Positions 1 through 45,838 of a stretch of 64,000 nucleotides of DNA are shown piece by piece. The stretch is taken from the sequence record PZ168832.1; one strand, given 5' to 3'. Each line of letters opens with the position of its first letter. Position 1 is the stretch's first letter. The notes beneath the pieces are model-generated. The model did no database searches and was not told where the DNA came from. It saw nothing but the letters and a program-made list of their open reading frames with translations. Both the position numbers and the translations under genes were made by a program. The DNA is from a phage.

Positions 1-354
1 ATTATTAGAACTCATTGATGTAAAGATTTCTGCACCAGAACGGTTTTCACCAATCAGGTTAATAAAGCCGCCAGTTGAACGAGGCTGAACGAAAGTGAAA
101 CGTTGCATCCACGGAGTGCGGTTGGCACCTTTCCCTGTGAATCCTTGAATCTGAATATTCAGGCCTTCTTGCTCGTTCACACCGATGTAAGTGGTAATTG
201 TTGCGCCAGTCGTCGCTGCGGTCTTGCCGTCCATCGCTTCGCAATCGTAAACAGCGATTGAATCGGAAGTACGGACAGCGGCTTCAGTCGCTTCCATATA
301 CATGGTTCCGAGAATAGCAGTTGCGGCAAGCGCGATTCCAGTGATGCGTTTCAT
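1..354 (-). CDS. Secreted protein, partial (ATG at 354; runs off the window start with no stop)
   Basis: Open frame read by hand from ATG 354..352 to position 1 (118 codons, not in the ORF track because it lacks a stop). N-terminus MKRITGIALAATAILGTMYMEA is signal-peptide-like. Confidence 0.45.
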   Translation of the reverse strand, partial: MKRITGIALAATAILGTMYMEATEAAVRTSDSIAVYDCEAMDGKTAATTGATITTYIGVNEQEGLNIQIQGFTGKGANRTPWMQRFTFVQPRSTGGFINLIGENRSGAEIFTSMSSNN

Positions 355-419
355 TTTCGTTTCCTCTATGATTTCTGCTTCAATGATTAAAGTATACGCC
401 CATTGAAGCAGAAAGCAAA

Positions 420-1415
420 TTATTTATTAGCAATATAAGCAAATTTTTGATAGTTATTTGCTTTGATGAGTTTTTCAACTTCAACAAGGTCATGAGCTAC
501 GTCATCAAGCAAGATGTTGCGCCATGTAGCGAATCGGCCAACACTGAATACGTTCAAATCCATAGTCAGCTGGAGCAGTAAGGCGTGTCGCAAGTCTTTC
601 GGAATGTCGACAATCTTGCCATATTTCTGGTCGACCTTTTCAACTTCTTCAAGAGCAATGTCACTCCATGAGAGGCCAAAGGCTGTCAATACTTCGTCAA
701 CTTCTGCACGCAACTTAATGTCACGGTAACGAGTGATGCCGCCAGCGGCTTCAATTGCGGCTTCACTTACGCTAACCAAAGGAATTGTTTCAATGATCAA
801 TGTGTCGCCAGTGATTGATGCGCGGTAAGTTCTGACGGAGTAGTCAGGAAAGTAAATGGTTTGATACAGTTCACACTTGCGTTTAATCTTAAAGCGGTAA
901 ACACGAATGTTTGCCTTGTCGAATGAGAAATCAATCTTTTGATCAATCCCAGCAAGCTTCATTATGACTGGCAGCGGCGATGTGTTGATGATTGGCGTCT
1001 CGCTATAGCCGCAAAGAGTATCAACAGGAGTATTAAAGAATATGCGGTCACCCAGTTTGTCGACAAGCTGATCATAAAAGTCATCAGGCGCAATATAACG
1101 CGTTGCAGTTTTAAGCTTCATGATTGAACGGCTGCCAAACTGATTGGTGACCTTCATGGAATACATGTTGGCAAGGTTGATTGGGCAATGGTCGTGGTAG
1201 TAGTTGCCGCGAAAATACACAGCCTTGTCAACTGTCACTGCCTTAAAAGGGATTCCGGTAATACGGCTTACTTCTTCGCCGCGAAAGCGTAGCAGCGCCT
1301 TGTGCTGTGGCGCTCGCTCCCCTGCTTCGTACACAATAGAGTTCGGGAAGTGACACGCGGTAATAAGTCCTGCCAAACCGCCGCCGATAATCATTACAGG
1401 TTGTTTCATGTTCAT
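420..1415 (-). CDS. FAD/NAD(P)-binding oxidoreductase, UDP-galactopyranose-mutase / amine-oxidase-like
   Basis: N-terminal dinucleotide-binding motif MIIGGGLAGL (GxGxxG) and C-terminal GRFATWRNILLDDV resembling the GR..Y..MD flavoenzyme motif. ATG at 1415 and 1409; AAGGA RBS is better spaced for 1409. Confidence 0.6.
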   Translation of the reverse strand: MNMKQPVMIIGGGLAGLITACHFPNSIVYEAGERAPQHKALLRFRGEEVSRITGIPFKAVTVDKAVYFRGNYYHDHCPINLANMYSMKVTNQFGSRSIMKLKTATRYIAPDDFYDQLVDKLGDRIFFNTPVDTLCGYSETPIINTSPLPVIMKLAGIDQKIDFSFDKANIRVYRFKIKRKCELYQTIYFPDYSVRTYRASITGDTLIIETIPLVSVSEAAIEAAGGITRYRDIKLRAEVDEVLTAFGLSWSDIALEEVEKVDQKYGKIVDIPKDLRHALLLQLTMDLNVFSVGRFATWRNILLDDVAHDLVEVEKLIKANNYQKFAYIANK

Positions 1416-1439
1416 TTGTCCTTTGTGGGTGATATGAGA

Positions 1440-1468
1440 AGTATAATAGCTAAATTATTTTACAGCAA
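1440..1468 (-). promoter_or_regulatory. Sigma70-like promoter for the oxidoreductase / secreted-protein unit
   Basis: On minus strand TTGCTG, 17-nt spacer, TATACT, between the upstream terminator and the ATG at 1415. Confidence 0.35.
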
Positions 1469-1494
1469 CAAGTCATTTCTATTTAGTACAGACG

Positions 1495-1521
1495 AAAAAA
1501 GACCCACAACAAGTGTGGGTC
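1495..1521 (-). terminator. Rho-independent terminator after the Lys/Ala/Glu-repeat gene
   Basis: Perfect 8-bp stem GACCCACA/TGTGGGTC with 5-nt loop, followed on the minus strand by TTTTTT. Confidence 0.5.
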
Positions 1522-1549
1522 AATTACCGCTATATAACCGTCCTACAGG

Positions 1550-2389
1550 TTATTCCGCTTGATCACCGTCTTCGGCATTGTCGTTGGATTCAACATCGAC
1601 AAACTCGATGTGTCCCATCTCTTCCAGCTTGCTCAGGTAGGAGCGAACGGAAGCGCCAAACAGTTGATCTTTAACTTTCTCGCCCAGCTCATCGATAGAC
1701 TGTGCCACGCCAACTTCGCCTTCTTTGATCGCCGCCAGAACGCGTCCACGGGTGGAATGCTCTTGCGGCTGGCTCAGGCCATTGCCAGTGTAGATGAAGT
1801 GAGTGGCTTTTGCACGACGCTGACCGTTTGCCTTTTTAGCAGCCTTGCGCTCTGCGATAGCTTTGCGACGTTCTTCAGCTTCTTTCTTACGCTGTTCTTT
1901 CTGCTGTTCCGCAGCTTCTTTCGCCGCAATCTTAGCAGCTTCACGCTCTGCCTTGCGTTTCGCCTTGGCTTCTTCTTTGGCCTTCTCTTTTTCGGCCTTC
2001 GCTGCAGCACGGGCTTGATCACGCTCTGCTTTCTTAGCAGCAGCCTGCTCTGCTTTCAGGCGCTTGGCTTCTTCTTTAGCCTTTGCCTTTTCGATTTCTT
2101 TTGCTGCTTTAGCGGCTTCACGCTCTGCTTTCTTAGCAGCAGCCTTTTCTGCACGCTCTTTAGCTTTCTTAGCTGCTTCTTCAGCACGCTTCTGAGCCTT
2201 CTCATCAGCAGCCTGTTTGCGCTTCAGCGCGGCTTCTTCACGCTTGGCTTGTTTTTCCTGCTCACGCTTCTGGCGTTTTTCTTCGGCTTCTTTCTTTTTA
2301 GCCAGGCGTTTTTCTTCAGCCACGCGACGACGTTCTGCTGCGGCTGCTTGTTTTTCTTCTTTAGATAATACTTTGATTGCTTCGGCCAT
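1550..2389 (-). CDS. Lys/Ala/Glu-rich low-complexity protein with a C-terminal globular domain (histone-H1-like / nucleoid-associated candidate)
   Basis: About 200 aa of KAE repeats (AEKAAAKKAEREAAKAAKE...), then a roughly 80-aa non-repetitive C-terminal region. ORF-track start at 2395 is GTG; ATG at 2389 has an AAGGA RBS 8 nt upstream. Confidence 0.6.
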   Translation of the reverse strand: MAEAIKVLSKEEKQAAAAERRRVAEEKRLAKKKEAEEKRQKREQEKQAKREEAALKRKQAADEKAQKRAEEAAKKAKERAEKAAAKKAEREAAKAAKEIEKAKAKEEAKRLKAEQAAAKKAERDQARAAAKAEKEKAKEEAKAKRKAEREAAKIAAKEAAEQQKEQRKKEAEERRKAIAERKAAKKANGQRRAKATHFIYTGNGLSQPQEHSTRGRVLAAIKEGEVGVAQSIDELGEKVKDQLFGASVRSYLSKLEEMGHIEFVDVESNDNAEDGDQAE

Positions 2390-2548
2390 ATTCACAGTCC
2401 TTAAATAAATTAGTTTATTTTATATTCCCCGTTTGGGATAACTTAATTATGCCTTCAGTCGCCGCCAGTAGCAACTAAAAACTATGGCGGCAATGCCACT
2501 TTAATTAAACTGATTTTCAGTTTTATTTTTCGTAAATTTACGTCAACA

Positions 2549-3733
2549 TTAACGCGCTTTCAAATCACGGTACACGGTCAGATTCTTCTTAGCACGGGTG
2601 ATAGCGGTGTACATCATCTTGGAGTACGGAACGCCGCGCAGGATTTCTTCCAGCACGCACACGTTGTCCCACTCGCTGCCTTGCGATTTGTGGACCGTGA
2701 TTACATAGCCATAGTCCATCCCGCCAACAGCGCGTTGAGCCTCTTTGCGCACTTCCTGATCAGTAGAGAAGGAAAGAGGATTAATCTTAACCTTTATATC
2801 TTTGCCATCGGTAAGCGAGCGCAAATTGACATACATGATTTCATTGGACTCGTCTTCGTCCCTTTCAAAGTCCGGCACTGGCTCATAGCTAATAACAATC
2901 CCTTGCTCGCCATTACAGAATCCTGGGCCGTGTTGGTTGAAGGTGCAAATAACCTTCTCGCCGATTCCTGGCATTGGCGTTATACGTCCGCTCACTTGCC
3001 GTAATAATGAATTCCATTTGTCTTTGGTGCTATTATAGGAGCAAATAATTTGATCATCTTCGCCCATGAATTTCTTCAATGCAGTAACGCGCGGCGATTC
3101 TGCCAACACTTTGACGTCATCATATTCACGCGGAGGAAGGCGGTTGCCTTGGCGCACGAAGAAGGAGGCGCGGATAATGTTGGACTCTTTCCCTTGCCGC
3201 ATGATTTCTGTTAACAGTACGTCAACGGCTTCTTCGGTAAAGTAGGCGGCGGCTTTTACCGGAGGGACTTGTCCAATGTCGCCTAATGCCAGGACAGGGA
3301 TGCGGTGATCAAGAAGGCGCTCTGTGTCCCACTCGCCAACCATCGACGCTTCATCGAGTACAACAAGGTGCGGCCTTTCATCCAGCTTTGACTTTCTCGA
3401 AAAGATTGGCTCATTGTCGTCATTTACGCCGCGCACGTTATAGATGAACTGGTGAAGGGTCTTAGCGCCACGACAGCCTTTTTGCTTTAATCGGCTTGCA
3501 GCCTTTCCGGTCGGCGCAATATAGATAGCGCCGTACTCACCGACACAGCGGCGCACAATCTCGCGAGCAATAGAGGTTTTACCAGTCCCTGCATAGCCAG
3601 CGATGAAAAACACGCGCTTCGTCGTTTTACCGTCCTGCAATCGCTTGTACCATGCAACGGCTTTCTCGATGGCGTCGATTTGTTGCGCGTTAAACTGAAT
3701 CACTGGCTCATCATTAAATTCTGGAATGTTCAT
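2549..3733 (-). CDS. dda: Dda/RecD-like SF1 DNA helicase
   Basis: Walker A GYAGTGKT, DEAS-like LVVLDEASM, C-terminal VITVHKSQGSEWD motif; 394 aa. Confidence 0.8.
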   Translation of the reverse strand: MNIPEFNDEPVIQFNAQQIDAIEKAVAWYKRLQDGKTTKRVFFIAGYAGTGKTSIAREIVRRCVGEYGAIYIAPTGKAASRLKQKGCRGAKTLHQFIYNVRGVNDDNEPIFSRKSKLDERPHLVVLDEASMVGEWDTERLLDHRIPVLALGDIGQVPPVKAAAYFTEEAVDVLLTEIMRQGKESNIIRASFFVRQGNRLPPREYDDVKVLAESPRVTALKKFMGEDDQIICSYNSTKDKWNSLLRQVSGRITPMPGIGEKVICTFNQHGPGFCNGEQGIVISYEPVPDFERDEDESNEIMYVNLRSLTDGKDIKVKINPLSFSTDQEVRKEAQRAVGGMDYGYVITVHKSQGSEWDNVCVLEEILRGVPYSKMMYTAITRAKKNLTVYRDLKAR

Positions 3734-4219: not shown

Positions 4220-5302
4220 ATGGCTAGTTTAAGAGAAGAAGCAAAAATAATTGAAGAGTTTTTAACAGAACTCCAAAGAGGCATCCCAGAAGATGAGCGC
4301 GTCATGACGGTGTTTGCTCCTGAAGCAACGGTACAGACCGACGAGCGCGGCAAGAAGATCAACAGCAGCTTCTGGCCTAAGCCTTGGAAGTTGGGCAAGC
4401 CGCTCATGCAGCACCAAAACGGCTATGCGTGCATCAGTTCAATGCGTAAGTCTCCCAACCCAAAGACGGGTGAGATGCGATACTGGCGTACAGAGTCGGC
4501 CTTTGGTCACGGTATGGCGATGATGGTCGACGACATCGGCCACGGTAAAGGGTCCAAAGGCGATTTAGATTTGGAATTCTTTTTCGAGCGACTGAAGCCG
4601 ACTGTCATTGTCGAGACGTCACCGAACAACCACCAGCTTTGGTACTTCTTTAAAGAGCCGATTGACCATCTTATTCAGTTCAAAGCATTCCTTGGGTCTT
4701 TCGTAAACATGGTACTCAAGAAGGGCGGCGACAATACGATTAAAGACGTGACGCGCGTGGGCCGTGTTCCTGGGTGCATCAACAACAAGCGTGTGACTCA
4801 CGACGGCCCCTATAAATATGTCGATGAGAACGGCGACCCGTTCCGCTGCCGACTTGTCCATGCAGACTACTCCTTGCGCTACACCATCGAAGACATCTGT
4901 CAGGCATTTGGCTTTCACGTCGTTATGTCGCAAAAGCGTGAGATTCAAATTGACGTCGATGAATACAAGTACGATGCTGTTTGGTATAAAATAGCCCAGC
5001 AGATTCTAGCGCGCAACAAAATGGGTGAAGGGTCTGATGGCGACGTCATCGAGAACATGTCAGGCAAGTGCCGCATAATCTGTCCTTGGGGTGAAGAACA
5101 CACCAACGGCGACCCGTATGGCGCTTATTTTCGCGGCCCCATCCCTGGTGCTGAACATGAATTCGTTTTCGGTTGCGCTCACGACTGTCACCGGAAAGGG
5201 GAAGGCAAGAAAGGTTGGACCGCTTTTGTTGAAGCAGTAGTCATGCCTTATATTGAGAATCAACTTGATATGATAAATCGTCGCGCAGGTGGCATAAAAT
5301 AG
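4220..5302 (+). CDS. Primase-polymerase (archaeo-eukaryotic primase superfamily, Prim-Pol type)
   Basis: Motifs consistent with Prim-Pol: acidic MVDDIG, SPNNHQLWYF (sG.G.H-like), DVTRVGRVPGCINNK (D...R.PG..N.K); Cys/His-rich C-terminus. Confidence 0.6.
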   Translation: MASLREEAKIIEEFLTELQRGIPEDERVMTVFAPEATVQTDERGKKINSSFWPKPWKLGKPLMQHQNGYACISSMRKSPNPKTGEMRYWRTESAFGHGMAMMVDDIGHGKGSKGDLDLEFFFERLKPTVIVETSPNNHQLWYFFKEPIDHLIQFKAFLGSFVNMVLKKGGDNTIKDVTRVGRVPGCINNKRVTHDGPYKYVDENGDPFRCRLVHADYSLRYTIEDICQAFGFHVVMSQKREIQIDVDEYKYDAVWYKIAQQILARNKMGEGSDGDVIENMSGKCRIICPWGEEHTNGDPYGAYFRGPIPGAEHEFVFGCAHDCHRKGEGKKGWTAFVEAVVMPYIENQLDMINRRAGGIK

Positions 5303-6611: not shown

Positions 6612-8282
6612 ATGTCAATTGAACATGACAATCTTCCAGAGGATACAGGTGATGAATTTGGTGCAATCTTTGACGAAATTCAAGACGCTGGTGTTTCAGA
6701 AGAAATGCAAGCAGCAGAGCAGCAAGGCACCAGAGCTAAAATAAGCCTTCAGCACAAGGCTGTTGAGAAAGATGCAGAGCGCATGGAATGCTACGGTGAA
6801 GAAGACTTGGTTGAAAGGGCACGTTTGCTCGCCTCACTTCAGGTAATCAAGTTCCCTCACTATAAACCGACGAAAGATGATTTTGTTCTTCAGGCGGACC
6901 GGACGAGTGACATGAACCGTTATGCGGTTTTCGACGCGTTGTTTGATAAGGGAAGCGGCGTTGTTCCATTCCCTCACAAAGATACTTTTCGTGGGCGCTT
7001 AGTCGACCATCGCGGCGAAACATTCACCGACCGGACGTTGGAAGTCACAGAGATAGTTGCCGCTGTCGACGCAGCAGGCCTGTCCAACCCAAACTCACGG
7101 CAGGTCGCTCAATCCTATAAGGAATGGGCCATGCGTTATCAGCGCGACGACCTGATGGACTTCTTCTACAAGAAGCTGCCTGAATGGGACGGTACTGCGC
7201 GCATTGAGAAATACCTTATCGAGCTATTCCGACCGTTCGATACAGAGTTAAACCGACAAATCGGTGTGTATTTTTGGCTATCGCTCTATAACCGCCTGAC
7301 CAACCCTGGCTGTCAAGCGCCAATATCCATTGCGCTCATCGGCGGCCAGAACGCAGGGAAGAGTTATTTTAGTAAGCTGCTTTGCGAAGCTATTATGAAC
7401 GACCGCCACGCAACACCGATTCCGTTGAACTTGGCCGCGCAAAACTTCAACCCGTTCTTGCGAGCTATTACGGGTCGCTCAATTATCGCGAACGTTGGCG
7501 AGATGACAGGCTTTAAAAAGGCCGACATCGAAAACATGAAAGCATTCCTGACTAAGACGGAAGATGACCTGGACTTCAAATTTGAAGACACGCAGGTTAA
7601 ACCACGCCAGTGGATTGCGATCATGGACGGCAACGAATACGCAGGCATGCAGCGTGACGACACGGGCAACCGTCGTGTTTACCCTATCTTTGTTGGCCAA
7701 CTTGCTGACAAGGACGGGCAACCGAACTGGTCTAAAGACTTCCAAGCTGACCTTTCCACTTTGAAAGAAGATGTTTGGCAGCTTATGGCTGAGTGCGCTG
7801 CGTGGATGGAGAAGCACGGCGAAGCAGGTTACAACGCCTTTGTTGGTGAAACGTCTCGTATGCTTACTGAGTTCAGCAAGAATGAAATGGAACGCGCTCG
7901 CGGCGTTATCCGTGATGAGATGGTCGACAACGACCTTGTTGAAGTCGTCATTACTGCGCCTTATGACCGACATCACAGCGGACGCTGGCACATCACCAGT
8001 GGTGCAATCGCTATGGGATTCAGAGCTAAGTGCGGCAAGTCGCCTTTCTCACGTACCCTTGCGCCGCACATGTCGAAACTTGGATTTGAGCCTGCAACCT
8101 ATCGCAACCAGCGTGGTTACTTTACGCCGCTGATTAAGAATGAAGCAGGGGAATACATTTCTGACTTGATGACTATCTTGGCGTATCTTATCCGCGACGA
8201 GTCTGACCCTGAAGATATTGAATTCTTGAAGAAGGTTATTGAACGCAAACGTTCTTTAGGAAGAGATAAGGATGAATTCTGA
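6612..8282 (+). CDS. Primase-associated P-loop helicase (VirE / D5-like, SF3-type)
   Basis: Walker A GGQNAGKSYFSKLL; 556 aa; sits downstream of the Prim-Pol gene, giving a split primase-helicase arrangement. Confidence 0.6.
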   Translation: MSIEHDNLPEDTGDEFGAIFDEIQDAGVSEEMQAAEQQGTRAKISLQHKAVEKDAERMECYGEEDLVERARLLASLQVIKFPHYKPTKDDFVLQADRTSDMNRYAVFDALFDKGSGVVPFPHKDTFRGRLVDHRGETFTDRTLEVTEIVAAVDAAGLSNPNSRQVAQSYKEWAMRYQRDDLMDFFYKKLPEWDGTARIEKYLIELFRPFDTELNRQIGVYFWLSLYNRLTNPGCQAPISIALIGGQNAGKSYFSKLLCEAIMNDRHATPIPLNLAAQNFNPFLRAITGRSIIANVGEMTGFKKADIENMKAFLTKTEDDLDFKFEDTQVKPRQWIAIMDGNEYAGMQRDDTGNRRVYPIFVGQLADKDGQPNWSKDFQADLSTLKEDVWQLMAECAAWMEKHGEAGYNAFVGETSRMLTEFSKNEMERARGVIRDEMVDNDLVEVVITAPYDRHHSGRWHITSGAIAMGFRAKCGKSPFSRTLAPHMSKLGFEPATYRNQRGYFTPLIKNEAGEYISDLMTILAYLIRDESDPEDIEFLKKVIERKRSLGRDKDEF

Positions 8283-14772: not shown

Positions 14773-15194
14773 TACAACGTTACGACCTGACATATGATGT
14801 GGTATCAGAAGATTGCGCCATCACTCCCGTTCCAGAGAGTCATGAAGGACGTTTTGTTGAATATGAGGACTATGCTGCGCTGGAAGCGAAATATAGTGAA
14901 GCGCAACGCGAGTTGGTTGCATTACGCTCACAGGTCCGTGATGCGTCGGCGCTTGTTAAGCAGTTGCACGACGTCGTTGCTACTATAGGCGTGGATGATG
15001 ATGCACCGAAGGAGGAAGCGTGGACCGTGTGGCTTGGTGGAGATAATCCGGTGCCTGGGAAGATGGTTGAGTTTGAATTACTCAACGGTTATAAATCAAA
15101 AGCTGCCGTTCCTTCGGACAGTTTGACATGGGATAAAGTCACAAGCCCGACTGGTGCAAAGATTATTGCCTATCGGGTCGTTAAGGAGGGGTGA
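14769..15194 (+). CDS. Hypothetical protein
   Basis: ATG at 14769 overlapping the upstream stop. Confidence 0.5.
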   Translation: MIQRYDLTYDVVSEDCAITPVPESHEGRFVEYEDYAALEAKYSEAQRELVALRSQVRDASALVKQLHDVVATIGVDDDAPKEEAWTVWLGGDNPVPGKMVEFELLNGYKSKAAVPSDSLTWDKVTSPTGAKIIAYRVVKEG

Positions 15195-15643
15195 TGGGTA
15201 AAAAGCTTATCGCCGCTGGTTGGGCCATCCCGAAGTGGGCTCATCGTGCGCACTACTTTGATGAAGGAGAAGTGCAAAGCCTTTGTGGTCGCGCAACTTA
15301 TTTCGGTGATGAGCGCGTCAGCGGCGATTACATCGACTCGCTTTTAGGCAAAGGTGATTGCAAGAAATGTCAGGATATATTAAGAGATATTCTTACGCAA
15401 AGAGGATTGCTTGAGCTTGATGAATCGGAGGAAGTAATTGAACTTAAGCTTGAAGCGAATTACCTTATTTATACGTTCAAGAACTATTACGCAACTAATA
15501 TGCGCTCAAAAATGAGCGAGGAAGTAATAGAAAAGGTGTTCACCTACAATCCGCTAAGGATGAATAAAACTAAATTGAAGAAGTTTAATATAATGTTAAG
15601 GAAAGAATTTAAAAGGCTTGGAGTGAAGAATTTTATATTTTAA
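15194..15643 (+). CDS. Hypothetical protein
   Basis: AGGAGG RBS then ATG at 15194; last gene before a strong terminator. Confidence 0.5.
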   Translation: MGKKLIAAGWAIPKWAHRAHYFDEGEVQSLCGRATYFGDERVSGDYIDSLLGKGDCKKCQDILRDILTQRGLLELDESEEVIELKLEANYLIYTFKNYYATNMRSKMSEEVIEKVFTYNPLRMNKTKLKKFNIMLRKEFKRLGVKNFIF

Positions 15644-15660
15644 TAGTGATTAATGTTAAG

Positions 15661-15684
15661 AGGGCCGATTGGCCCTTTTTGTTT
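15661..15684 (+). terminator. Rho-independent terminator ending the plus-strand early array
   Basis: AGGGCC-GATT-GGCCCT hairpin followed by TTTTTGTTTG. Confidence 0.6.
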
Positions 15685-15798
15685 GCCTGTGGAATGTGAG
15701 GCTTTTGTGGTTATTTACGATTCAAGGCTGTAATTTAAGAGAGCGAAAATATTATAATAATTTATCAAGATTATTGCATATTGTGGCAATCAACGTTT

Positions 15799-16499
15799 AT
15801 ACGTATTTATGACAGTTTAATCCACTAAATAATACGGATAGAACAGTGAGGAAAATACAGCGGTGTATTTTAGTGTAAATATTGAATCAAAAATAAATAA
15901 TTATGGTGCTATTATATACGCAGATTGTTTGTAATTTATAGGATATTTTATCGTGGAGTATTGGCTAACGGTGCGTTAGCCGTGGGTCTTGGTGCTTGTG
16001 GTGTTGATGCTCAGAATTTTAATAATGTTTTAGTTTTAGTAATCGTAGTCAATGATGATACGTATAAGAAAATGAGAGTCACCCCTTCACAGGATATTGT
16101 ACCGTGGCCCTGTGGTGCGCCGCGCCTGGGATTGCTGGTATACACTGGTGCTATTTTGCCGCGAAGGCAGTCATTCATACGTATCATGACGTATCATTGG
16201 GCTATTGATTTATAAGGAAAAATACGCTGATACGGATGATACGGGTGCAAACATAATATATATAGAATTCCAGAAAATTAATTAACTCCATTTTGAATTA
16301 ATTTAAATTAATTTTTTTCTACATCCTCATACTTATACTAAACTTATATTTATACGTATCATCCGTAAGATATAAGTAAAAACAAAGACTTGCGGCAATA
16401 CGGATGATACGTCATGATACGCTTCAACCAGCCATCTGCGGCTAAGTCATTGATTTGCATAACAAGCGGCGAAAGGGATGGATTTCTTTTATACGTATC
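15799..16499. repeat. Iteron cluster A: 9-10-bp CGTATCATC / GATGATACG units in both orientations around an AT-rich core
   Basis: Units at about 16057-16065, 16176-16200, 16229-16245, 16353-16369, 16398-16422, 16491-16499; AT-rich core 16261-16316; 8-bp palindrome GGCTAACG..CGTTAGCC at 15962-15980. Confidence 0.6.
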
Positions 16500-16635
16500 A
16501 AACAGTACACCACGCACCACGGTCCGCAATCCACGCAGCATTATGATTTGTGTACATTTATAGCCATAATGAACATCAATCTGCACTTGAATATAATGTC
16601 CATCCATTGTATAATTCACACTATTAATTTGCACT

Positions 16636-17124
16636 ATGGGATTTTGCACTATGAGTCAAGACTATGTAGCGATGCCTGAAGACTTTGAAGACCCGCGATT
16701 TGCAGAGCACAATCAGGCTTTATTCGATGAGTTCATTGACCTTGTTATTCAGGGCCATGACATGCGCGCAGCTTTTGCACTAGTATTTGGAATGGAAGTT
16801 GCAACGGATAACTACACTGGACAGCGAATCCTTTGCGCGCAACGCAACCCATACTACAAAATGCGCTTCAAAAAGCGTATGGAAGAGATGCCACTCAAGG
16901 ATTTGTGGAGCGTAAAAGGTGCAATTCACAATTTGGTTAAGCTTGTGCGTGATCCAGAAGTCGCGGCGTCAGCCAAGCTTAATGCTATTCGCGAACTGAA
17001 TATCATCTACGGCATCACGATGATTGATGAAAACGGCAATAGTAAAATGGGCCGTTCCATGGACGATTTCTACAAGGATTTTGGAGAGGCAGCCAAAGAA
17101 GGCGAGCAATTCTCCCGCCACTAG
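16636..17124 (+). CDS. Terminase small-subunit-like DNA-binding protein (tentative)
   Basis: N-terminal FDEFIDLVIQGHDMRAAFALVFG and QRNPYYKMR resemble the small-terminase HTH pattern (F..EY..d.n...AA..AGYS ... LL.NP.V), by recall only. Alternative starts at 16651 and 16672. Confidence 0.4.
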   Translation: MGFCTMSQDYVAMPEDFEDPRFAEHNQALFDEFIDLVIQGHDMRAAFALVFGMEVATDNYTGQRILCAQRNPYYKMRFKKRMEEMPLKDLWSVKGAIHNLVKLVRDPEVAASAKLNAIRELNIIYGITMIDENGNSKMGRSMDDFYKDFGEAAKEGEQFSRH

Positions 17125-17142
17125 CCAATTTGCACTATAAAA

Positions 17143-17178
17143 CGGCCCTAGAACACATCTTCTCCACTTCTAGGGCCG
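17143..17178 (+). other. 11-bp perfect inverted repeat (stem-loop) just after the terminase-small-like gene
   Basis: CGGCCCTAGAA, 14-nt loop, TTCTAGGGCCG; no T-tract follows. Confidence 0.3.
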
Positions 17179-17523
17179 TCGGTAATACGACGGGGAAGGT
17201 TGCAACCGTAAACGCGTTAGAAAGTGTATTATTATAAGTCATCTTTTAGTCACCTTACGTAACAATTTACGACCTTCAGCCGTCCAATCGAACGACTCCA
17301 CCAGCAGATTCGCACTATAACCTAAGATGATGCGCCCTTTCTCGTTATCGACCCGCCAACAAGTCTCGAATAGCATTCGATTTGCACTATTAACTATCGC
17401 CGCAACGCGCGTAGGGTAAACGCAATTTGCACTATGGTCATAAAGGGATAAGGTGCGACCACTTCCGATGGACAACGTAGCGATGAGAATGAGCGTATTC
17501 ATAAGCCACCAATTTGCACTATG

Positions 17524-17546
17524 AAAAGCGACCCCGAAGGGCCGCC
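17524..17546 (-). terminator. Rho-independent terminator ending the minus-strand arm of the cassette
   Basis: On minus strand GGCGGCCC-TTCG-GGGTCGC (7-bp stem with one G-U, TTCG tetraloop) followed by TTTT. Confidence 0.45.
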
Positions 17547-17552
17547 ATTCGA

Positions 17553-18179
17553 TTAGATAATCTGGAAGGTGTAGGACTTGTTGCCGAACTCGAAGTTCAA
17601 GCGCCCAGCTTCCTTAAGCTTCATGCGGAAGCGAATATGTTTGCTATCCGGTAAGCCCAGCGCGGCGAACGCTACGCGGACCGATTTGAACTCTCCTACA
17701 CCCTCGACCATAACGCCGTTACGGGTAAGACGCTTTTGCGCCACTTCCTTATTATCCCAACTTTTTGCAATGCCTTCGCTATTCGAACGGCGATGGGAAG
17801 GAGTTCCGTTTTGCACTACGCAATTTGCACTATCGTTTAAACCGCTCTTAACGAAGGCTTCATACTCTTCGTCGGTCATCGCGTCGAGTTCTTCCTGCGT
17901 CGGCTCGGCCTTTTTAACGACCGCACGCGCCTTATGCGTTTTTACATCGCTGGACACTTCCTCGCGCGGCTTCGCGTCGGGGATGGGCGATTCGTTGGAC
18001 GGCTCATCGAGCGCGTTTAAGGACTCGATTAACGCGATTACGCGAGTCTCGGCGGTCCGGCGGTCCGAAAACTTCTTAATCGGTTTTGAGCCGGAATTTG
18101 CATTATAGAATGCAACGAGGTCGGCGGTCTTAGTTGCGATAACGTCGCCGCTAGTCGAGAAGCGATTTAAGCTAACCAT
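17553..18179 (-). CDS. Hypothetical protein (208 aa), cassette gene
   Basis: Strong third-position bias with abundant CGC/TCG/GCG/TTA codons unlike the rest of the window; the antisense ORF 17578..18108 is Ser-rich low complexity. Confidence 0.55.
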   Translation of the reverse strand: MVSLNRFSTSGDVIATKTADLVAFYNANSGSKPIKKFSDRRTAETRVIALIESLNALDEPSNESPIPDAKPREEVSSDVKTHKARAVVKKAEPTQEELDAMTDEEYEAFVKSGLNDSANCVVQNGTPSHRRSNSEGIAKSWDNKEVAQKRLTRNGVMVEGVGEFKSVRVAFAALGLPDSKHIRFRMKLKEAGRLNFEFGNKSYTFQII

Positions 18180-18259
18180 AATAAACTCCTATTTGTTAGG
18201 GCGCTAGGCGCGAAAGAATTTTATTAAAGCGCCGCGCACGACGCTCTAAAAATCCTCTC

Positions 18260-18544
18260 TTACGCTTCGACGAGGGAGAAGGTTTCAAATTCTTCTTCTC
18301 CCATAACGAGTAAAATATTCCCGATTTCGACCGCTTCGAAGAAGTATCCGTTAACGTTTACTTCGAATGATTCGCGGTCCGATTCCGGTAACGCCGCGTA
18401 AAGTTTAAAAGCCTCGGCGACCGTTACCCCACCCGCTTCAATAGTTTGATCTACGTTCGCGGCGTAGACTTCGGATAAATTTTGTTTTACGCCGTAGTTC
18501 TCGACGATAGCGTTACGGATAGAAGAAACGTTAAGAATAGCCAT
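18260..18544 (-). CDS. Small acidic protein, paralogue of 19176..19466
   Basis: Aligns by eye with 19176..19466: SIRNA/SAIRAA, LSEVYAANVDQTIE vs LESVYLSNVDATIE, VNVNGYFFEAVEIG vs VTINGFVYTITEIG. Confidence 0.55.
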   Translation of the reverse strand: MAILNVSSIRNAIVENYGVKQNLSEVYAANVDQTIEAGGVTVAEAFKLYAALPESDRESFEVNVNGYFFEAVEIGNILLVMGEEEFETFSLVEA

Positions 18545-18612
18545 TTTAAACTCCTAGTTGGGATAGGCGTTAACGACCTATTCGTTAACTCATCCCGTCC
18601 CGATATGAGTAC

Positions 18613-18640
18613 ATTATAATATAGTGTAGAAAAAAGTAAA
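18613..18640 (-). promoter_or_regulatory. Cassette promoter P1 (sigma70-like)
   Basis: On minus strand TTTACT, 16-nt spacer, TATAAT, followed by a conserved TATCGGGACGGG block. Confidence 0.5.
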
Positions 18641-18684
18641 GCACTTTTTCGATAAAAATGCGATAAATTATTTTATCTTTTTTC

Positions 18685-18712
18685 TTTACTTCTTCGTACA
18701 CTCGCGTATACT
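18685..18712 (+). promoter_or_regulatory. Cassette promoter P2 (sigma70-like)
   Basis: TTTACT (18685-18690), 16-nt spacer, TATACT (18707-18712), then conserved GTTTATATCGAGACGG. Confidence 0.5.
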
Positions 18713-18767
18713 TGTTTATATCGAGACGGGCGATGGCCTTTCTTCTACTAGCATCGGGAGCTTTATT

Positions 18768-19070
18768 ATGACTACTTTGATCTCTTCCATCCTTACTTAC
18801 GACGAAGACCGCTTAACCGTTCGCTCTCTTATCGCCGCCGTTAACGCGGAACTAGAATCTAGCGCCATTAAGGTCCGCGCGGTCGCCTTCATCGGCCTTT
18901 CCTTCGACGATATGAAGTACGCCGAACGTAGCGCCATCCGCTTCACGAAGACCGACGACGAAGCCGTTACCCTTATCGAGACGGTTACGCCGCGCGACGA
19001 AGCGTTAATTATCATCGAGTATATCGATATAGAAGGTGATAAAGCTTATAAATATTTTATCGCAAAATAA
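18768..19070 (+). CDS. Small acidic protein (100 aa), cassette gene
   Basis: ORF with GGGAG RBS; same codon bias as the other cassette genes. Confidence 0.55.
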   Translation: MTTLISSILTYDEDRLTVRSLIAAVNAELESSAIKVRAVAFIGLSFDDMKYAERSAIRFTKTDDEAVTLIETVTPRDEALIIIEYIDIEGDKAYKYFIAK

Positions 19071-19081
19071 CGAAAAATTGC

Positions 19082-19110
19082 TTTACTTATTCGTACACTA
19101 AGACTATAAT
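19082..19110 (+). promoter_or_regulatory. Cassette promoter P3 (sigma70-like)
   Basis: TTTACT (19082-19087), 17-nt spacer, TATAAT (19105-19110), then conserved GTTTATATCGAGAGGG. Confidence 0.55.
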
Positions 19111-19175
19111 GTTTATATCGAGAGGGATGAGGAAGCGAATAGGTCGCTACCCTCCCGACTAACTAGGAGAATATT

Positions 19176-19466
19176 ATGATTACTTTATCCGCTATCCGCG
19201 CCGCTCGCGTCGAAACTTCCGAAAACTCTAATGTATTTGGCGAAACCTTAGAGAGCGTTTATCTCTCTAACGTAGACGCGACTATCGAGTCTATTTATGA
19301 ACCGATCAACTTCCTCGACCTTTACAAGTATCGCGACGAGGACGTAGCATCCTACCGCGTAACGATTAACGGCTTCGTCTATACGATTACCGAAATCGGC
19401 GGCGAATATCTCGCGATCCCGCAACTCGGCGGAGAAGTGACTTATTTTAAAATCGTAAGCCTTTAA
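19176..19466 (+). CDS. Small acidic protein, paralogue of 18260..18544
   Basis: See alignment under 18260..18544; TAGGAG RBS. Confidence 0.55.
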   Translation: MITLSAIRAARVETSENSNVFGETLESVYLSNVDATIESIYEPINFLDLYKYRDEDVASYRVTINGFVYTITEIGGEYLAIPQLGGEVTYFKIVSL

Positions 19467-19477
19467 GGAGAAGAAAA

Positions 19478-19687
19478 ATGACTAATATGAATAACTCTCT
19501 TAACGCGCGCGCCCATCGTACCGCCGTCATCGATATGTTCCGCGAACTTAAGGAATTATGCGATAATATGAACGCGATGTTATCCATCGGCGGCTGGGGA
19601 TACGAAGAAGAGGTTAAATACGCGGTTATGCGTCGTAAGCGCGATAACGTCCTGGGACAAATTAAACGCGCCGGATTATTCCTTTAA
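19478..19687 (+). CDS. Small hypothetical protein (69 aa), cassette gene
   Basis: GGAGAAG RBS then ATG; followed by a terminator. Confidence 0.45.
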   Translation: MTNMNNSLNARAHRTAVIDMFRELKELCDNMNAMLSIGGWGYEEEVKYAVMRRKRDNVLGQIKRAGLFL

Positions 19688-19713
19688 TTATAATTACCCA
19701 CCGTTACTAATAG

Positions 19714-19739
19714 GCCGCGCTTAGTCGCGGCTTTTCTTC
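19714..19739 (+). terminator. Rho-independent terminator ending the plus-strand arm of the cassette
   Basis: GCCGCG-CTTAGT-CGCGGC hairpin followed by TTTTCTTCG. Confidence 0.55.
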
Positions 19740-19857
19740 GTCCCTATTTCGATGCGCTTCTCCGCGAAAACTCCTTTATCCTTCCCTTCGTCGTCGCATA
19801 ATCTTCTTCGAGATGCTCCTTAGTTCGCATAACAGGTATTACGTTAAATGGAGAACA

Positions 19858-19931
19858 TCGCGTAAGTCCTTGTTTTATATAGACACCTATATCGGACCGT
19901 TAGGGCGGGTCGCGTAAGTCGTTGTTTTATA
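19858..19931 (+). repeat. Direct repeat pair TCGCGTAAGTC(C/G)TTGTTTTATA
   Basis: Copies at 19858-19879 and 19910-19931, 52 bp apart, in a non-coding stretch. Confidence 0.5.
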
Positions 19932-20056
19932 AAGGCGCAAAACTTTCCCTTCGTTCCGAACTAAAACGAGGAATATGCCGACCCTTCGTCCGAAAATAGT
20001 ACGCATGCGAAATTACATGCATCTAGAATAATCCCCACCGATATTATCCTACACGC

Positions 20057-20120
20057 AATCATTCGCTTTCGAATCATTATGCTTCATATTGTTATGCGTC
20101 AAATCATTCGCTTTCGAATT
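20057..20120 (+). repeat. Direct repeat pair of an internally palindromic unit AATCATTCGCTTTCGAAT
   Basis: Copies at 20057-20075 and 20102-20120; each contains the inverted repeat ATTCG..CGAAT. Confidence 0.5.
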
Positions 20121-20391
20121 GTAACGCTGGAAACTGTAACGGCTATTGATTATTGCGTTCGTGTGGTTTTTATGGCATGGGTCTTTTGGTGCGTTTTGGT
20201 ACTTGATGGAATTTGCGGTACACTAATCAAAATACGACACATTTGGTCCACTAACTTTTCAAAGAAAAAGTCCCAGACAGTACCGTACTATTTTGTACCC
20301 ACAGTAAATTTGCAGTACACTCCTGCGCGGCAGGCAAAATAAAGGGCCGCCACAGCGACCCACGATTCACGGTTAAATCAACAAGCACCCA

Positions 20392-31672: not shown

Positions 31673-31950
31673 CGCGTATAATGACGTATCATCCGTATCA
31701 AGTAAGTAGTTGTTTTCAAAAGAATCTTACGGATGATACGGATGATACGCGTTGCCGCGATACTTTATAGGAATTCAAATAAATTAATTTAAAATTATAT
31801 ATCTAATTTAATTTTATTTTTTTATAAACTCTTATATATGAAAAGTATCCGTATCATCCGTATCATCCGTAGCACACCAGTGATAGCGCGGCTTATACAC
31901 CGATACGGATAAAAATACGCCTCATTTTATCCGTATCATCCGTATCACAC
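31673..31950. repeat. Iteron cluster B: same 9-bp CGTATCATC / GATGATACG units and a homologous AT-rich core
   Basis: Units at 31681-31700, 31727-31750, 31845-31873, 31901-31920, 31925-31950; AT-rich core 31767-31824 shares TATAG(G)AATTC and AATTAATTTAAA with cluster A. Confidence 0.6.
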
Positions 31951-32062
31951 TAATTAAGGCGCGGCTATATCGGTTGTTATACATATTCAAACCATAATTA
32001 TTGTTTGCCTAAGTTTTTTTCATTAGATATAATACACAATACTTATTTGAGGGTGGATGCGA

Positions 32063-44965: not shown

Positions 44966-45838
44966 TTGAAAAAGAGAATCCTTAAAGTCACCTTATCTAT
45001 GCCGGATGGCACAAGCCAAGTGCTTGATGAAGGATTGATGCTTAGATGCCGAATCAAAAAGGCAGCACTTTCCGTGCAAAATAAGGCCACAATCGAAGTC
45101 GCAGGATTGACAGGGTACTTGAGAGAGCACCTGCTTTCCAACTTCACCGCATTCAACAAACGTCTGCGTGATCAAGGCCAATTGGCGGCGAATTACGTCA
45201 ACGTAACAATTGAAGCTGGATATAGAGAAGGCAACGTTGTTAGCAGCAACTTAGTCTACAAGGGGCAAGTCACAACGGTCGAGATAACAGCGCCGCCGCC
45301 GAACATCGTCATACGCATCACTTGCTACACCAACCAGATAAACAGGACTAAGTTCATCACTCAAGCTGCACCGTCAAACCCAACATTCAAAGAGTTTGTG
45401 GAGTGGTCGGCAAAGCAAATGGATATTGATACTGTTATCTGCGATACTTCGATTAACAATCAGCGTCTTGTTAACCCAGGCCGCACAACATATGTTGCAG
45501 CCGCCTTGCTGCTTGAGATTCAGAACTATCAAAGGAACTCTATTGCGGCATATATCGATGATGATACGCTCATCGTCAAGGATAAAGACAAAATTCTGAA
45601 TCCAGAACAGATAACGGTGATTGAGGAATTTGTCGGAATACCGATGTGGAACGAGTGGGGCGCTGACTTCACTTGCATGTATAACGCGGATTTGAAGCTT
45701 GCCCAAGGTGTGAAATTCAAATCAGTCTTAAACCCAAGCTTGAACGACACCACATTCGTCATCATGCAACTTGAATATGATTTAGCAAGTCGTGATGACA
45801 TATTTACGGTGACGGGCGGCGTTGCACCATCGGCCTAA
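44966..45838 (+). CDS. Tail / baseplate hub-associated protein
   Basis: 290-aa ORF between the tape measure and baseplate genes; TTG start. Confidence 0.45.
   Translation: MKKRILKVTLSMPDGTSQVLDEGLMLRCRIKKAALSVQNKATIEVAGLTGYLREHLLSNFTAFNKRLRDQGQLAANYVNVTIEAGYREGNVVSSNLVYKGQVTTVEITAPPPNIVIRITCYTNQINRTKFITQAAPSNPTFKEFVEWSAKQMDIDTVICDTSINNQRLVNPGRTTYVAAALLLEIQNYQRNSIAAYIDDDTLIVKDKDKILNPEQITVIEEFVGIPMWNEWGADFTCMYNADLKLAQGVKFKSVLNPSLNDTTFVIMQLEYDLASRDDIFTVTGGVAPSA

Follow-up and report, generated by a model that had tools for sequence, protein, structure and literature searches.

The DNA considered here is a stretch of 64,000 nucleotides from a phage (sequence record PZ168832.1; one strand, 5' to 3'), referred to below at its full length as the window, and the elements in question are two arrays of short repeats around AT-rich cores: cluster A (16054-16500), upstream of the gene for the small terminase subunit (TerS), and its twin, cluster B (31675-31947). 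Because the interval 15000-18000 shows 92-97% identity to genomes of Wifcevirus, a PB1-like myophage genus of Escherichia coli, we assign the window to that genus; the matches include ManiWeber_Bas99, HermannAdler_Bas98, WFH, WFC, FEC19 and ECML-117, among others, and a search for plasmid relatives of the same interval gave no match. Wifceviruses are myophages of 66-72 kb and distant kin of the PB1-like Pbunavirus of Pseudomonas (bioRxiv 10.1101/2024.09.12.612763). According to the gene layout, which was read with the Bas99 annotation as a guide, the window opens with replication genes on the minus strand, followed by a long plus-strand block with two genes called 'primase' and many small genes; this block stops at 15643, and the repeat region of cluster A comes next. 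To the right of the repeats, small genes in both orientations lead to the gene of the large terminase subunit (TerL) at ~25825, after which the plus strand carries the genes for portal, head, tail and lysis, and the window closes with replication genes on the minus strand.

The unit CGTATCATC and its complement occur in 11 exact copies in the window, as compared with 0.39 expected, and none of 100 shuffled sequences reached this number. The repeat cluster noticed in a preliminary description of this DNA is therefore real, and its unit is confined to two loci, with 4 copies at 16054-16411 (A) and 6 at 31685-31940 (B), save for one stray copy. The latter (45560-45568) lies inside a coding region with no units nearby, and it is probably due to chance. 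The 7-mer CGTATCA is found 24 times, with 6.4 copies expected (9 at 16056-16500 and 8 at 31685-31947), while the phased pairs CGTA-N5/6-CGTA number 15 against an expectation of 1.9, and 12 of the 15 fall in clusters A and B. The unit is best described as a CGTA core at a phase of 9-10 bp, arranged in tandem groups of two or three. There are 11 copies of the core pattern CGTA[T/A][C/T] in A and 10 in B, and reading the arms by hand, with degenerate copies included, gives ~14 units in each, so that the number of iterons is within or just above the range of 6-12 known from origins of the Staphylococcus pathogenicity island (SaPI) type.

Cluster A is built as a dyad. An 18-nt perfect inverted repeat (16180-16197 and 16404-16421) and a 13-nt perfect inverted repeat (16231-16243 and 16355-16367) share one centre at ~16300, which coincides with the dyad centre of the core (~16299-16300). 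The best 60 bp of the core (at 16259) are 87% AT, second in the window only to the core of B, and the core holds two direct repeats of 24 nt (16260-16283 and 16290-16313) separated by the spacer AACTCC. The preliminary description had spoken of at least seven clusters of direct iterons, in both orientations, around an AT-rich core of roughly 55 bp. The count was slightly generous, as six groups are clear and the rest are weak partial matches near 15799-15842, the whole of 15799-16050 being almost without units; the AT-rich core does exist but is longer, with 111 bp; and the two orientations are indeed present, yet ordered around the dyad centre, so that the term "direct iterons" has to be abandoned for groups that are inverted. 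The absence of a credible gene was correctly recognized: the open reading frames (ORFs) overlapping the region gave no match to PHROG families, and much of 15705-16228 is non-homologous even among close relatives, which carry unrelated sequence in its place. A comparison of the whole window with Rfam returned no family at the gathering score, hence the region does not correspond to a known structured RNA.

The left arm of A, which lies outside the terminal repeat discussed below, exists among Wifceviruses in three non-homologous variants, all of them with CGTATC units. These variants were located at 15705-16228 in the window, 3712-4070 in L001 and 3719-4148 in L002. The distal-left unit is present only in the left arm of the type shared by the window and Bas99, while the distal-right unit is kept at +203/+204 from the DNA end in all Wifcevirus records examined. 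The variant found in WFH, ECML-117 and FEC19 shares 79% identity with the left arm of B, and this hints at an exchange between the two elements.

Cluster B follows the plan of A as a cleaner copy, 15.5 kb away. A 22-nt perfect inverted repeat (31728-31749 and 31850-31871) encloses its core of 100 nt, which at 31780 contains the most AT-rich 60 bp of the window (95% AT). It is located between a MuF-like head-morphogenesis gene, followed by a 45-codon ORF, and the head protease gene. The earlier label "cluster A" already implied a second locus; the pairing of A with B and their co-variation are additions of the present work. We considered whether B is conserved exceptionally well, as a sign of special constraint, and rejected this idea, as its identity among Wifceviruses (94-99%) is not above that of the flanking genes (98-99%). 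A motif of another kind, CGCGGCW, has copies that flank both AT cores in dyad orientation (e.g. at 16157, 31753, 31887 and 31960), and in Pbunavirus E217 it occupies the loop of a hairpin, AAGCCT-CGCGGCAGT-AGGCTT, which forms the long inverted repeat around the cores. With 60 copies against 18.6 expected, it is over-represented 3x across the whole genome, at about one copy per kb and with no clear strand bias, and for this reason we now give GCGGC motifs less weight among the features that define the element; the excess could stem from codon bias or from a dispersed recognition site. The coordinates of all features are collected in Table 1.

Table 1. Repeat arrays, DNA ends and associated genes in the window
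Feature	Position	Strand	Remarks
RepB-type primase	4220..5302	+	PF16793, E=5.5e-36; 'pri' of a pri-rep-ori module
SaPI-Rep-like helicase (VapE/D5-type, superfamily 3, SF3)	6612..8282	+	556 aa; candidate initiator
A, distal-left single unit	16054..16062	-	GATGATACG; exact match
A, outer-left arm	16180..16197	+	two tandem units, CGTATCATGA-CGTATCAT, 10-bp phase
A, inner-left arm	16222..16243	-	three tandem units (CGTATCATC, CGTATCAG, CGTAT on minus strand)
A, AT-rich core	16244..16354		111 bp between the inner arms
Predicted left end of virion DNA, start of direct terminal repeat	16289..16290		...AATTAACTCC / ATTTTGAATT...
Predicted direct terminal repeat	16290..20186	+	~3.9 kb; single copy in window; ends transferred from relatives
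A, inner-right arm	16355..16372	+	CGTATCATC and degenerate CGTAAGATA
Near-palindrome of 9 bp	16390..16398		TTGCGGCAA; precedes outer-right arm of A
A, outer-right arm	16398..16421	-	three tandem units (CGTATCATGA, CGTATCATC, CGTAT on minus strand)
A, distal-right single unit	16494..16500	+	CGTATCA
C-over-G-skewed tract upstream of terS	16501..16650	+	short repeats
TerS gene	16651..17124	+	alternative ATG at 16636
Right-boundary region of terminal repeat	20040..20230	+	AATCATT/AATGATT before cut; GTACACTAATCA (20218-20229) after
B, outer-left arm	31675..31700	+	three units
B, inner-left arm	31728..31749	-	three units
B, AT-rich core	31750..31849		dyad centre ~31800
B, right half	31850..31947		inner-right 31850-31874 (+), outer-right 31902-31920 (-), distal-right 31932-31947 (+)

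The same two genomic positions are occupied by A and B in Wifcevirus, Kylevirus, Pbunavirus and metagenomic relatives, while the repeat unit differs from lineage to lineage. In Pantoea phage Kyle (Kylevirus) both elements are built of GGTTAT(T/C), and the core of B is nearly identical to the core of A at the cut position; in Pbunavirus E217 both elements carry the unit TAATTTGG, in a metagenomic lineage both carry CCGCAAC, and a closer relative, whose TerS is 68% identical, retains CGTATC together with the cut motif. Among 24 viral contigs with related TerS proteins, most lineages have a 60-bp stretch of 75-88% AT located 300-600 bp upstream of terS and accompanied by repeated 7-mers of their own. 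In Xanthomonas phage XcP1, which has relatives of TerS and of the protease, the AT peak upstream of terS reaches only 63%, no shared repeated 7-mers were detected and neither an A nor a B element was found; perhaps this lineage has lost the pair or exchanged it for something else. When the 7-mers repeated in A were cross-tabulated with the B elements, they recurred in the B of their own lineage 58, 29, 17, 16 and 7 times, as against at most 6 times in the B of other genera and 12 times between two Pbunavirus genomes. Measured from the dyad centre, the unit groups of Wifcevirus and those of Kyle stand within ~5 bp of each other, in A as well as in B (outer-left at -120/-110, inner-left at -79 to -56, inner-right at +50 to +73 and outer-right at +97 to +117). 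Co-variation of sequence combined with fixed spacing is the signature that one sequence-specific protein acting at both sites would leave. These data also bear on the idea that A and B are merely a small mobile or selfish inverted-repeat element in two copies, or functionless remnants of a duplication, as could be read from the similarity of two inverted-repeat copies and, in particular, from the resemblance between the left arms of B and of the WFH-type A. However, the two positions have been kept across genera and the units have been replaced in both copies together, and spacing that is held within ~5 bp speaks of selection on a shared binding protein rather than of drift or mobility; hence we regard this idea as very improbable indeed.

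Both elements lie in intergenic gaps between plus-strand genes, with promoters of the sigma-70 type in the vicinity. A promoter scan revealed two overlapping ones upstream of terS (16570-16597 and 16587-16615, the latter near-consensus, TTGAAT-17-TATAAT) and another near-consensus one downstream of B (32005-32033, TTGCCT-17-TATAAT). It is conceivable on these grounds that A and B are transcription-control regions, for instance sites to which a phage regulator binds, that time the expression of terS and of the protease/capsid operon, and that the DNA end in A is incidental. Yet the promoter-like sites stand outside both repeat arrays, 200-290 bp downstream of the elements, and no such site stands out in the cores; the possibility of promoters inside the AT cores was considered separately and found no support, as the counts did not exceed those of shuffled controls. 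Moreover, the other late operons (TerL, portal, tail) are devoid of such an element, and a purely transcriptional role would explain neither the precise end within the core in three genera nor a dyad with a centre of 95% AT. We therefore find this explanation quite improbable.

A candidate for the protein that acts at the repeats is encoded by the ORF 6612-8282, commonly annotated as 'DNA primase'. It contains a VapE-like ATPase domain (PF05272, E=1.6e-28), and in the PDB it matches 7pds_A (E=4e-11), which belongs to the complex of SaPI1 Rep1 with DNA (PMC9371898). In an AlphaFold2 model made from an alignment of 61 sequences (predicted local distance difference test, pLDDT, 89.1; predicted template-modelling score, pTM, 0.82) the C-terminus (residues 436-504) consists of helix 436-448, strand 459-462, helices 463-474 and 480-489 and the hairpin 493-504, i.e. 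it has the topology of a winged helix. According to Foldseek, the six structures most similar to the model are the six chains of 7PDS (E ~4e-16; template-modelling score, TM, 0.50-0.62; ~480 aligned columns, with Rep1 chains of ~450 residues), followed by the NrS-1 helicase, poxvirus D5/E5, African swine fever virus (ASFV) PrimPol and SaPI5 PriRep5. The C-terminal winged helix is thus predicted from the model to be able to read iterons. The actual primase is the RepB-type protein 4220-5302 and not the ORF 6612-8282. SaPI Reps are self-loading helicase-initiators whose C-terminal winged helix reads iterons of 5-6 bp; their origins lie just downstream of rep and comprise 6-12 iterons, divided equally between the two flanks of an AT-rich centre, with no fewer than two per side pointing in opposite directions, the repeat sequence being Rep-specific, and two hexamers are thought to load, one per side (PMC9371898). 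In Pbunavirus and several metagenomic relatives, the genes follow the order primase, rep-like gene, A and terS, with A ~200-350 bp after the rep-like gene; in E217, gp76 ends ~190 bp before A. In Wifcevirus and Kyle, the rep-like gene and A are separated by an inserted block of small genes.

The ends of virion DNA provide the second line of evidence. Direct terminal repeats with identical left and right copies are present in WFH (3701 bp), WFC (3784), Ro157lw (3533) and SP13 (3899), and base 1 of all four records aligns at the base homologous to 16289/16290 of the window. Base 1 of phage Mansfield falls at the same place, and its record annotates 1-3673 as 'direct terminal repeat predicted by PhageTerm' (PMC6753283), while Korf et al. 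give only a terminal repeat of ~3.7 kb (PMC6563267). The left end is located inside the AT core, 10 bp to the left of the dyad centre of A, and in all Wifcevirus records the cut is 361 bp upstream of the ATG of terS. In Kyle, with a repeat of 3603 bp and a TerS that is 43% identical, base 1 is 5 bp from the centre of its A, and the tentative end of Pbunavirus (Ab27) is ~20 bp from the centre of the Pbunavirus element. For Pbunavirus the reports conflict, since other workers, who observe no ends, prefer a headful mechanism (PMC12390725). The start of the SCUT-S1 record is not its predicted pac site. Altogether, these alignments make it a well-supported prediction that the physical left end of virion DNA maps inside the core of A. 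The suggestion of a packaging site, which the preliminary description had offered as the alternative to an origin, has consequently gained ground, with the left end of five related records in the core upstream of the TerS gene.

The right end is found at the homologous base (20186/20187) in WFH, Ro157lw, SP13 and Mansfield, and 81 bp further to the right in WFC. The sequence GTACACTAATCA begins 32 bp past this cut, and both it and the AATCATT units recur at the right end of Kyle; no CGTATC units occur in the right-boundary region 20040-20230. None of the deposited records of relatives puts a genome end at B, and a search for a right-boundary-like partner of B found none, as GTACACTAATCA is exact only at 20218 and AATCATT clusters only at ~20000-20250. 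Within the terminal repeat, a 69-codon gene (19478-19687) matches phrog_10377, 'transcriptional regulator' (E=9.5e-38). This gene is evidently accessory, as the segment 19416-19687 is absent from WFH and WFC.

TerS was identified by a search of solved structures alone: phmmer against the PDB gave 7uxe_A, 'Small terminase' (E=6.1e-34, residues 7-152 against 6-150), the decameric TerS of Pbunavirus E217, whose gene is ~58 kb away from that of TerL (PMC9611059). The gene had been called terminase-small-like from the sequence, and this is confirmed by the homology to a solved TerS, which covers its parts for DNA binding and oligomerization, and matches the annotation of the orthologue in the Mansfield record. 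Pfam gave no match for TerS and PHROGs only a family without assigned function, and for the neighbouring small proteins, too, neither yielded a function. In the tract that separates A from terS, CACCACG is repeated at ~16508-16522 and TGCACTAT at 16630-16652, two times each, overlapping the terS promoters and start codon. The GC skew upstream of terS amounts to -0.25 to -0.38 in 9 of 10 lineages, and the C-rich skew is weak or absent upstream of the protease gene beside B. This A-specific tract (16501-16650) is a candidate for the TerS recognition region.

It is tempting to go further and to regard A as a packaging site pure and simple, in which the CGTATC units are TerS sites on both sides of the cut, as in pacL/pacR of SPP1 or in pac of P1; we hold this to be possible, although the odds are against it. 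Several observations speak in its favour: in three genera the end and the dyad centre are separated by only 5-20 bp, the gene that follows is invariably terS while the rep-like gene is not always adjacent, and the N-terminal helix of TerS (RAAFALVFG) is identical in the two lineages with CGTATC and differs in others. In addition, the phase of 9-10 bp would suit neighbouring helix-turn-helix motifs on a ring oligomer, as judged from the E217 decamer (PMC9611059), and SPP1 TerS binds both sides of pacC (PMC6316719). On this supposition, TerS rings might enfold the arms and bring TerL to the AT core. B might then be a second docking site of TerS, which serves as a decoy or as a partner in synapsis, or else it might regulate the head operon; sites in T4 genes 16 and 19 have reportedly been proposed as synapsis partners. 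However, direct repeats, and not inverted groups, are what one would expect a cyclic ring to read, and the recognition sequence of a packaging site should be unique in the genome, while here a full second array is present at 31675-31947. This perfect site in the middle of the genome would be left unexplained and would invite aberrant cutting, all the more so as the core of Kyle B resembles the core of its A at the cut. The Rep-like initiator, for its part, would be left without an origin, although A and B are both built like the origins of its family. Finally, TerS of E217 has been reported to show no appreciable DNA binding in vitro (PMC9611059).

Therefore, we propose that A and B are two paralogous origins of the Rep type and that the core of A is also the start point of packaging, a reading to which we assign a probability of about 0.5. 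A role of both elements in replication is what we infer by analogy from the homologous initiator, the family-specific anatomy, the fact that the cores are the two most AT-rich sites of the window, and the precedent of SPP1; the earlier suggestion of an origin is thus strengthened by the presence of an anatomy typical of SaPI Rep-type origins and of a full-length structural homologue of Rep in the same genome. In this scenario, the CGTATC iterons would be read by the C-terminal winged helix of the Rep-like helicase, one hexamer would load on each side of the dyad and the AT core would melt, whereupon the RepB-type primase would prime synthesis. The left end of the packaged chromosome would be made in the core of A, at 16289/16290, upstream of terS. 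The terminase would probably dock via TerS on the A-specific C-rich tract and promoter region (16500-16650), cut the opened or distorted core and package rightwards. Alternatively, the link between the two processes could be that A fires toward the right boundary (20186) and thereby yields a second copy of the terminal repeat where the units of a concatemer join, a mechanism that has been proposed for T7. B would be the vegetative origin with no known end, at the same relative place as oriR of SPP1. The tract 16500-16650 and the right-boundary element 3.9 kb downstream, which are missing or weak at B, are natural candidates for the signals specific to the terminase.

A number of points weigh against this proposal. 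The Rep-like protein has a putative wing, YRNQRGYFTP, which the two CGTATC lineages share and other lineages do not, and this speaks for the proposal, but the helix-turn-helix of TerS fits the lineage pattern as well, so that co-variation does not name the binder. Within the Rep-like protein, divergence is strongest in the C-terminal domain, and this holds even for the comparison of the two CGTATC lineages (46-60% identity, as compared with 80-96% elsewhere), and in the window the rep-like gene, which ends at 8282, and A, which starts at ~16054, are ~8 kb apart and not adjacent. Repeat arrays that flank a cut are also the anatomy of true pac sites, exemplified by pacL/pacC/pacR of SPP1 (PMC6316719). 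An analysis of GC skew in Pbunavirus put the putative origins elsewhere, in the replication genes (PMC12390725); in the window, GC skew tracks gene orientation and hence says nothing on origins. The end positions are those of other groups' records and PhageTerm calls, transferred to this genome by homology, and both the mechanism by which the end in A would form and its coupling to origin firing are matters that we only infer.

A variation on the theme of Rep-type origins would be that the terminal repeat is set by replication itself and not by sequence-specific recognition by the terminase. The left boundary would then be the start of rightward synthesis from A and the right boundary (20186) a fixed stop or processing site, marked by conserved motifs of another kind. 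Where the units of a concatemer join, A would fire again locally, and this would both double the repeat and make an end on which the terminase could load. If true, this would account for a TerS of the E217 type that does not bind DNA, for the contradictory end-mapping in Pbunavirus, and for the fact that B, as an identical origin without a right-boundary partner, gives rise to no ends. We consider it unlikely.

Some elements of this picture have already been public, namely the annotation of the terminal repeat and of TerS in Mansfield, a sentence on SCUT-S1 that ties the pac site of Pbunavirus to an AT-rich region, and the tentative ends of Ab27. We found no earlier description of the repeat arrays, of their dyad geometry, of the twin B, of the co-variation of A and B across genera, of the Rep-like nature of the 'primase' or of the conserved right-boundary element, and a full-text search of the literature for 'Pbunavirus' together with 'iterons' returned nothing. 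The unusual features are that an element of the origin type is duplicated and that one of its copies coincides with the boundary of a long terminal repeat. The PB1-like phages include Pbunavirus, which has found wide use in Pseudomonas therapy, and Wifcevirus, whose phages grow very fast; to our knowledge, neither their replication origins nor their packaging signal have been defined so far. We also know of no solution, for most such phages, to the problem of how long terminal repeats are duplicated, and an origin placed exactly on the boundary of the repeat may help to make it. TerS of E217 has been solved without a known DNA target (PMC9611059). We hope that the candidates supplied here at base resolution, i.e. 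a pair of origin-type elements with lineage-specific repeats, an initiator, a cut position and a separate right-boundary element, will be of practical value in the rebooting and engineering of phages, where ends and origins must stay, and in predicting transduction behaviour.

It is instructive to compare the two elements with systems known from other phages and satellites. In P1, pac has a central cleavage region flanked on either side by clusters of a short repeat, like A; unlike A, it relies on Dam-methylated TGATCA/G hexamers and headful packaging, and it is not known to have an AT-rich dyad core or a second copy. In P4, the SF3-type alpha primase-helicase reads two separate iteron loci, ori and crr, which lie several kb from each other, by means of its C-terminal domain; however, crr does not reproduce the origin as a whole, primase and helicase are parts of one fusion protein, and no relation to the genome ends is known. 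T7 has secondary origins, phiOL and phiOR, and arrays of short repeats beside its terminal repeat, and replication through the repeat has been proposed to duplicate it before the cut; its origins are, however, promoter-driven, with no iteron-binding initiator known, and its repeat is 160 bp long as compared with ~3.9 kb here. SPP1 is another parallel, with two similarly organized origins, oriL and oriR, each made of repeats and an AT-rich unwinding element and served by one initiator (PMC6316719). One of them lies inside the block of head genes, and oriR and B are both found between a MuF-like head gene and a protease/scaffold gene. Likewise, the SPP1 cut, pacC, lies between the TerS sites pacL and pacR, and these overlap the terS promoter and the beginning of the gene (PMC6316719). 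In SPP1, however, the origins and pac are separate sequences, recognized by gp38 and gp1, respectively, and DNA is packaged by the headful mechanism, whereas here the end falls in a core of the origin type and the terminal repeat is fixed. The SaPI system differs in that we deal with a virulent 68-kb myophage rather than a satellite, with two copies per genome and with tandem groups at a 9-10-bp phase, and in that the origin is 8 kb from rep in this phage and one copy coincides with the end of virion DNA. Nonetheless, A and B share with SaPI origins the short iterons, the AT-rich centre flanked by equal shares of the iterons, the occurrence of two or more per side in opposite directions and the element-specific matching of the repeats, along with a helicase homologue, encoded in the same genome and predicted to have a winged helix at its C-terminus, and the pri-rep-ori order, which is kept in the Pbunavirus relatives.

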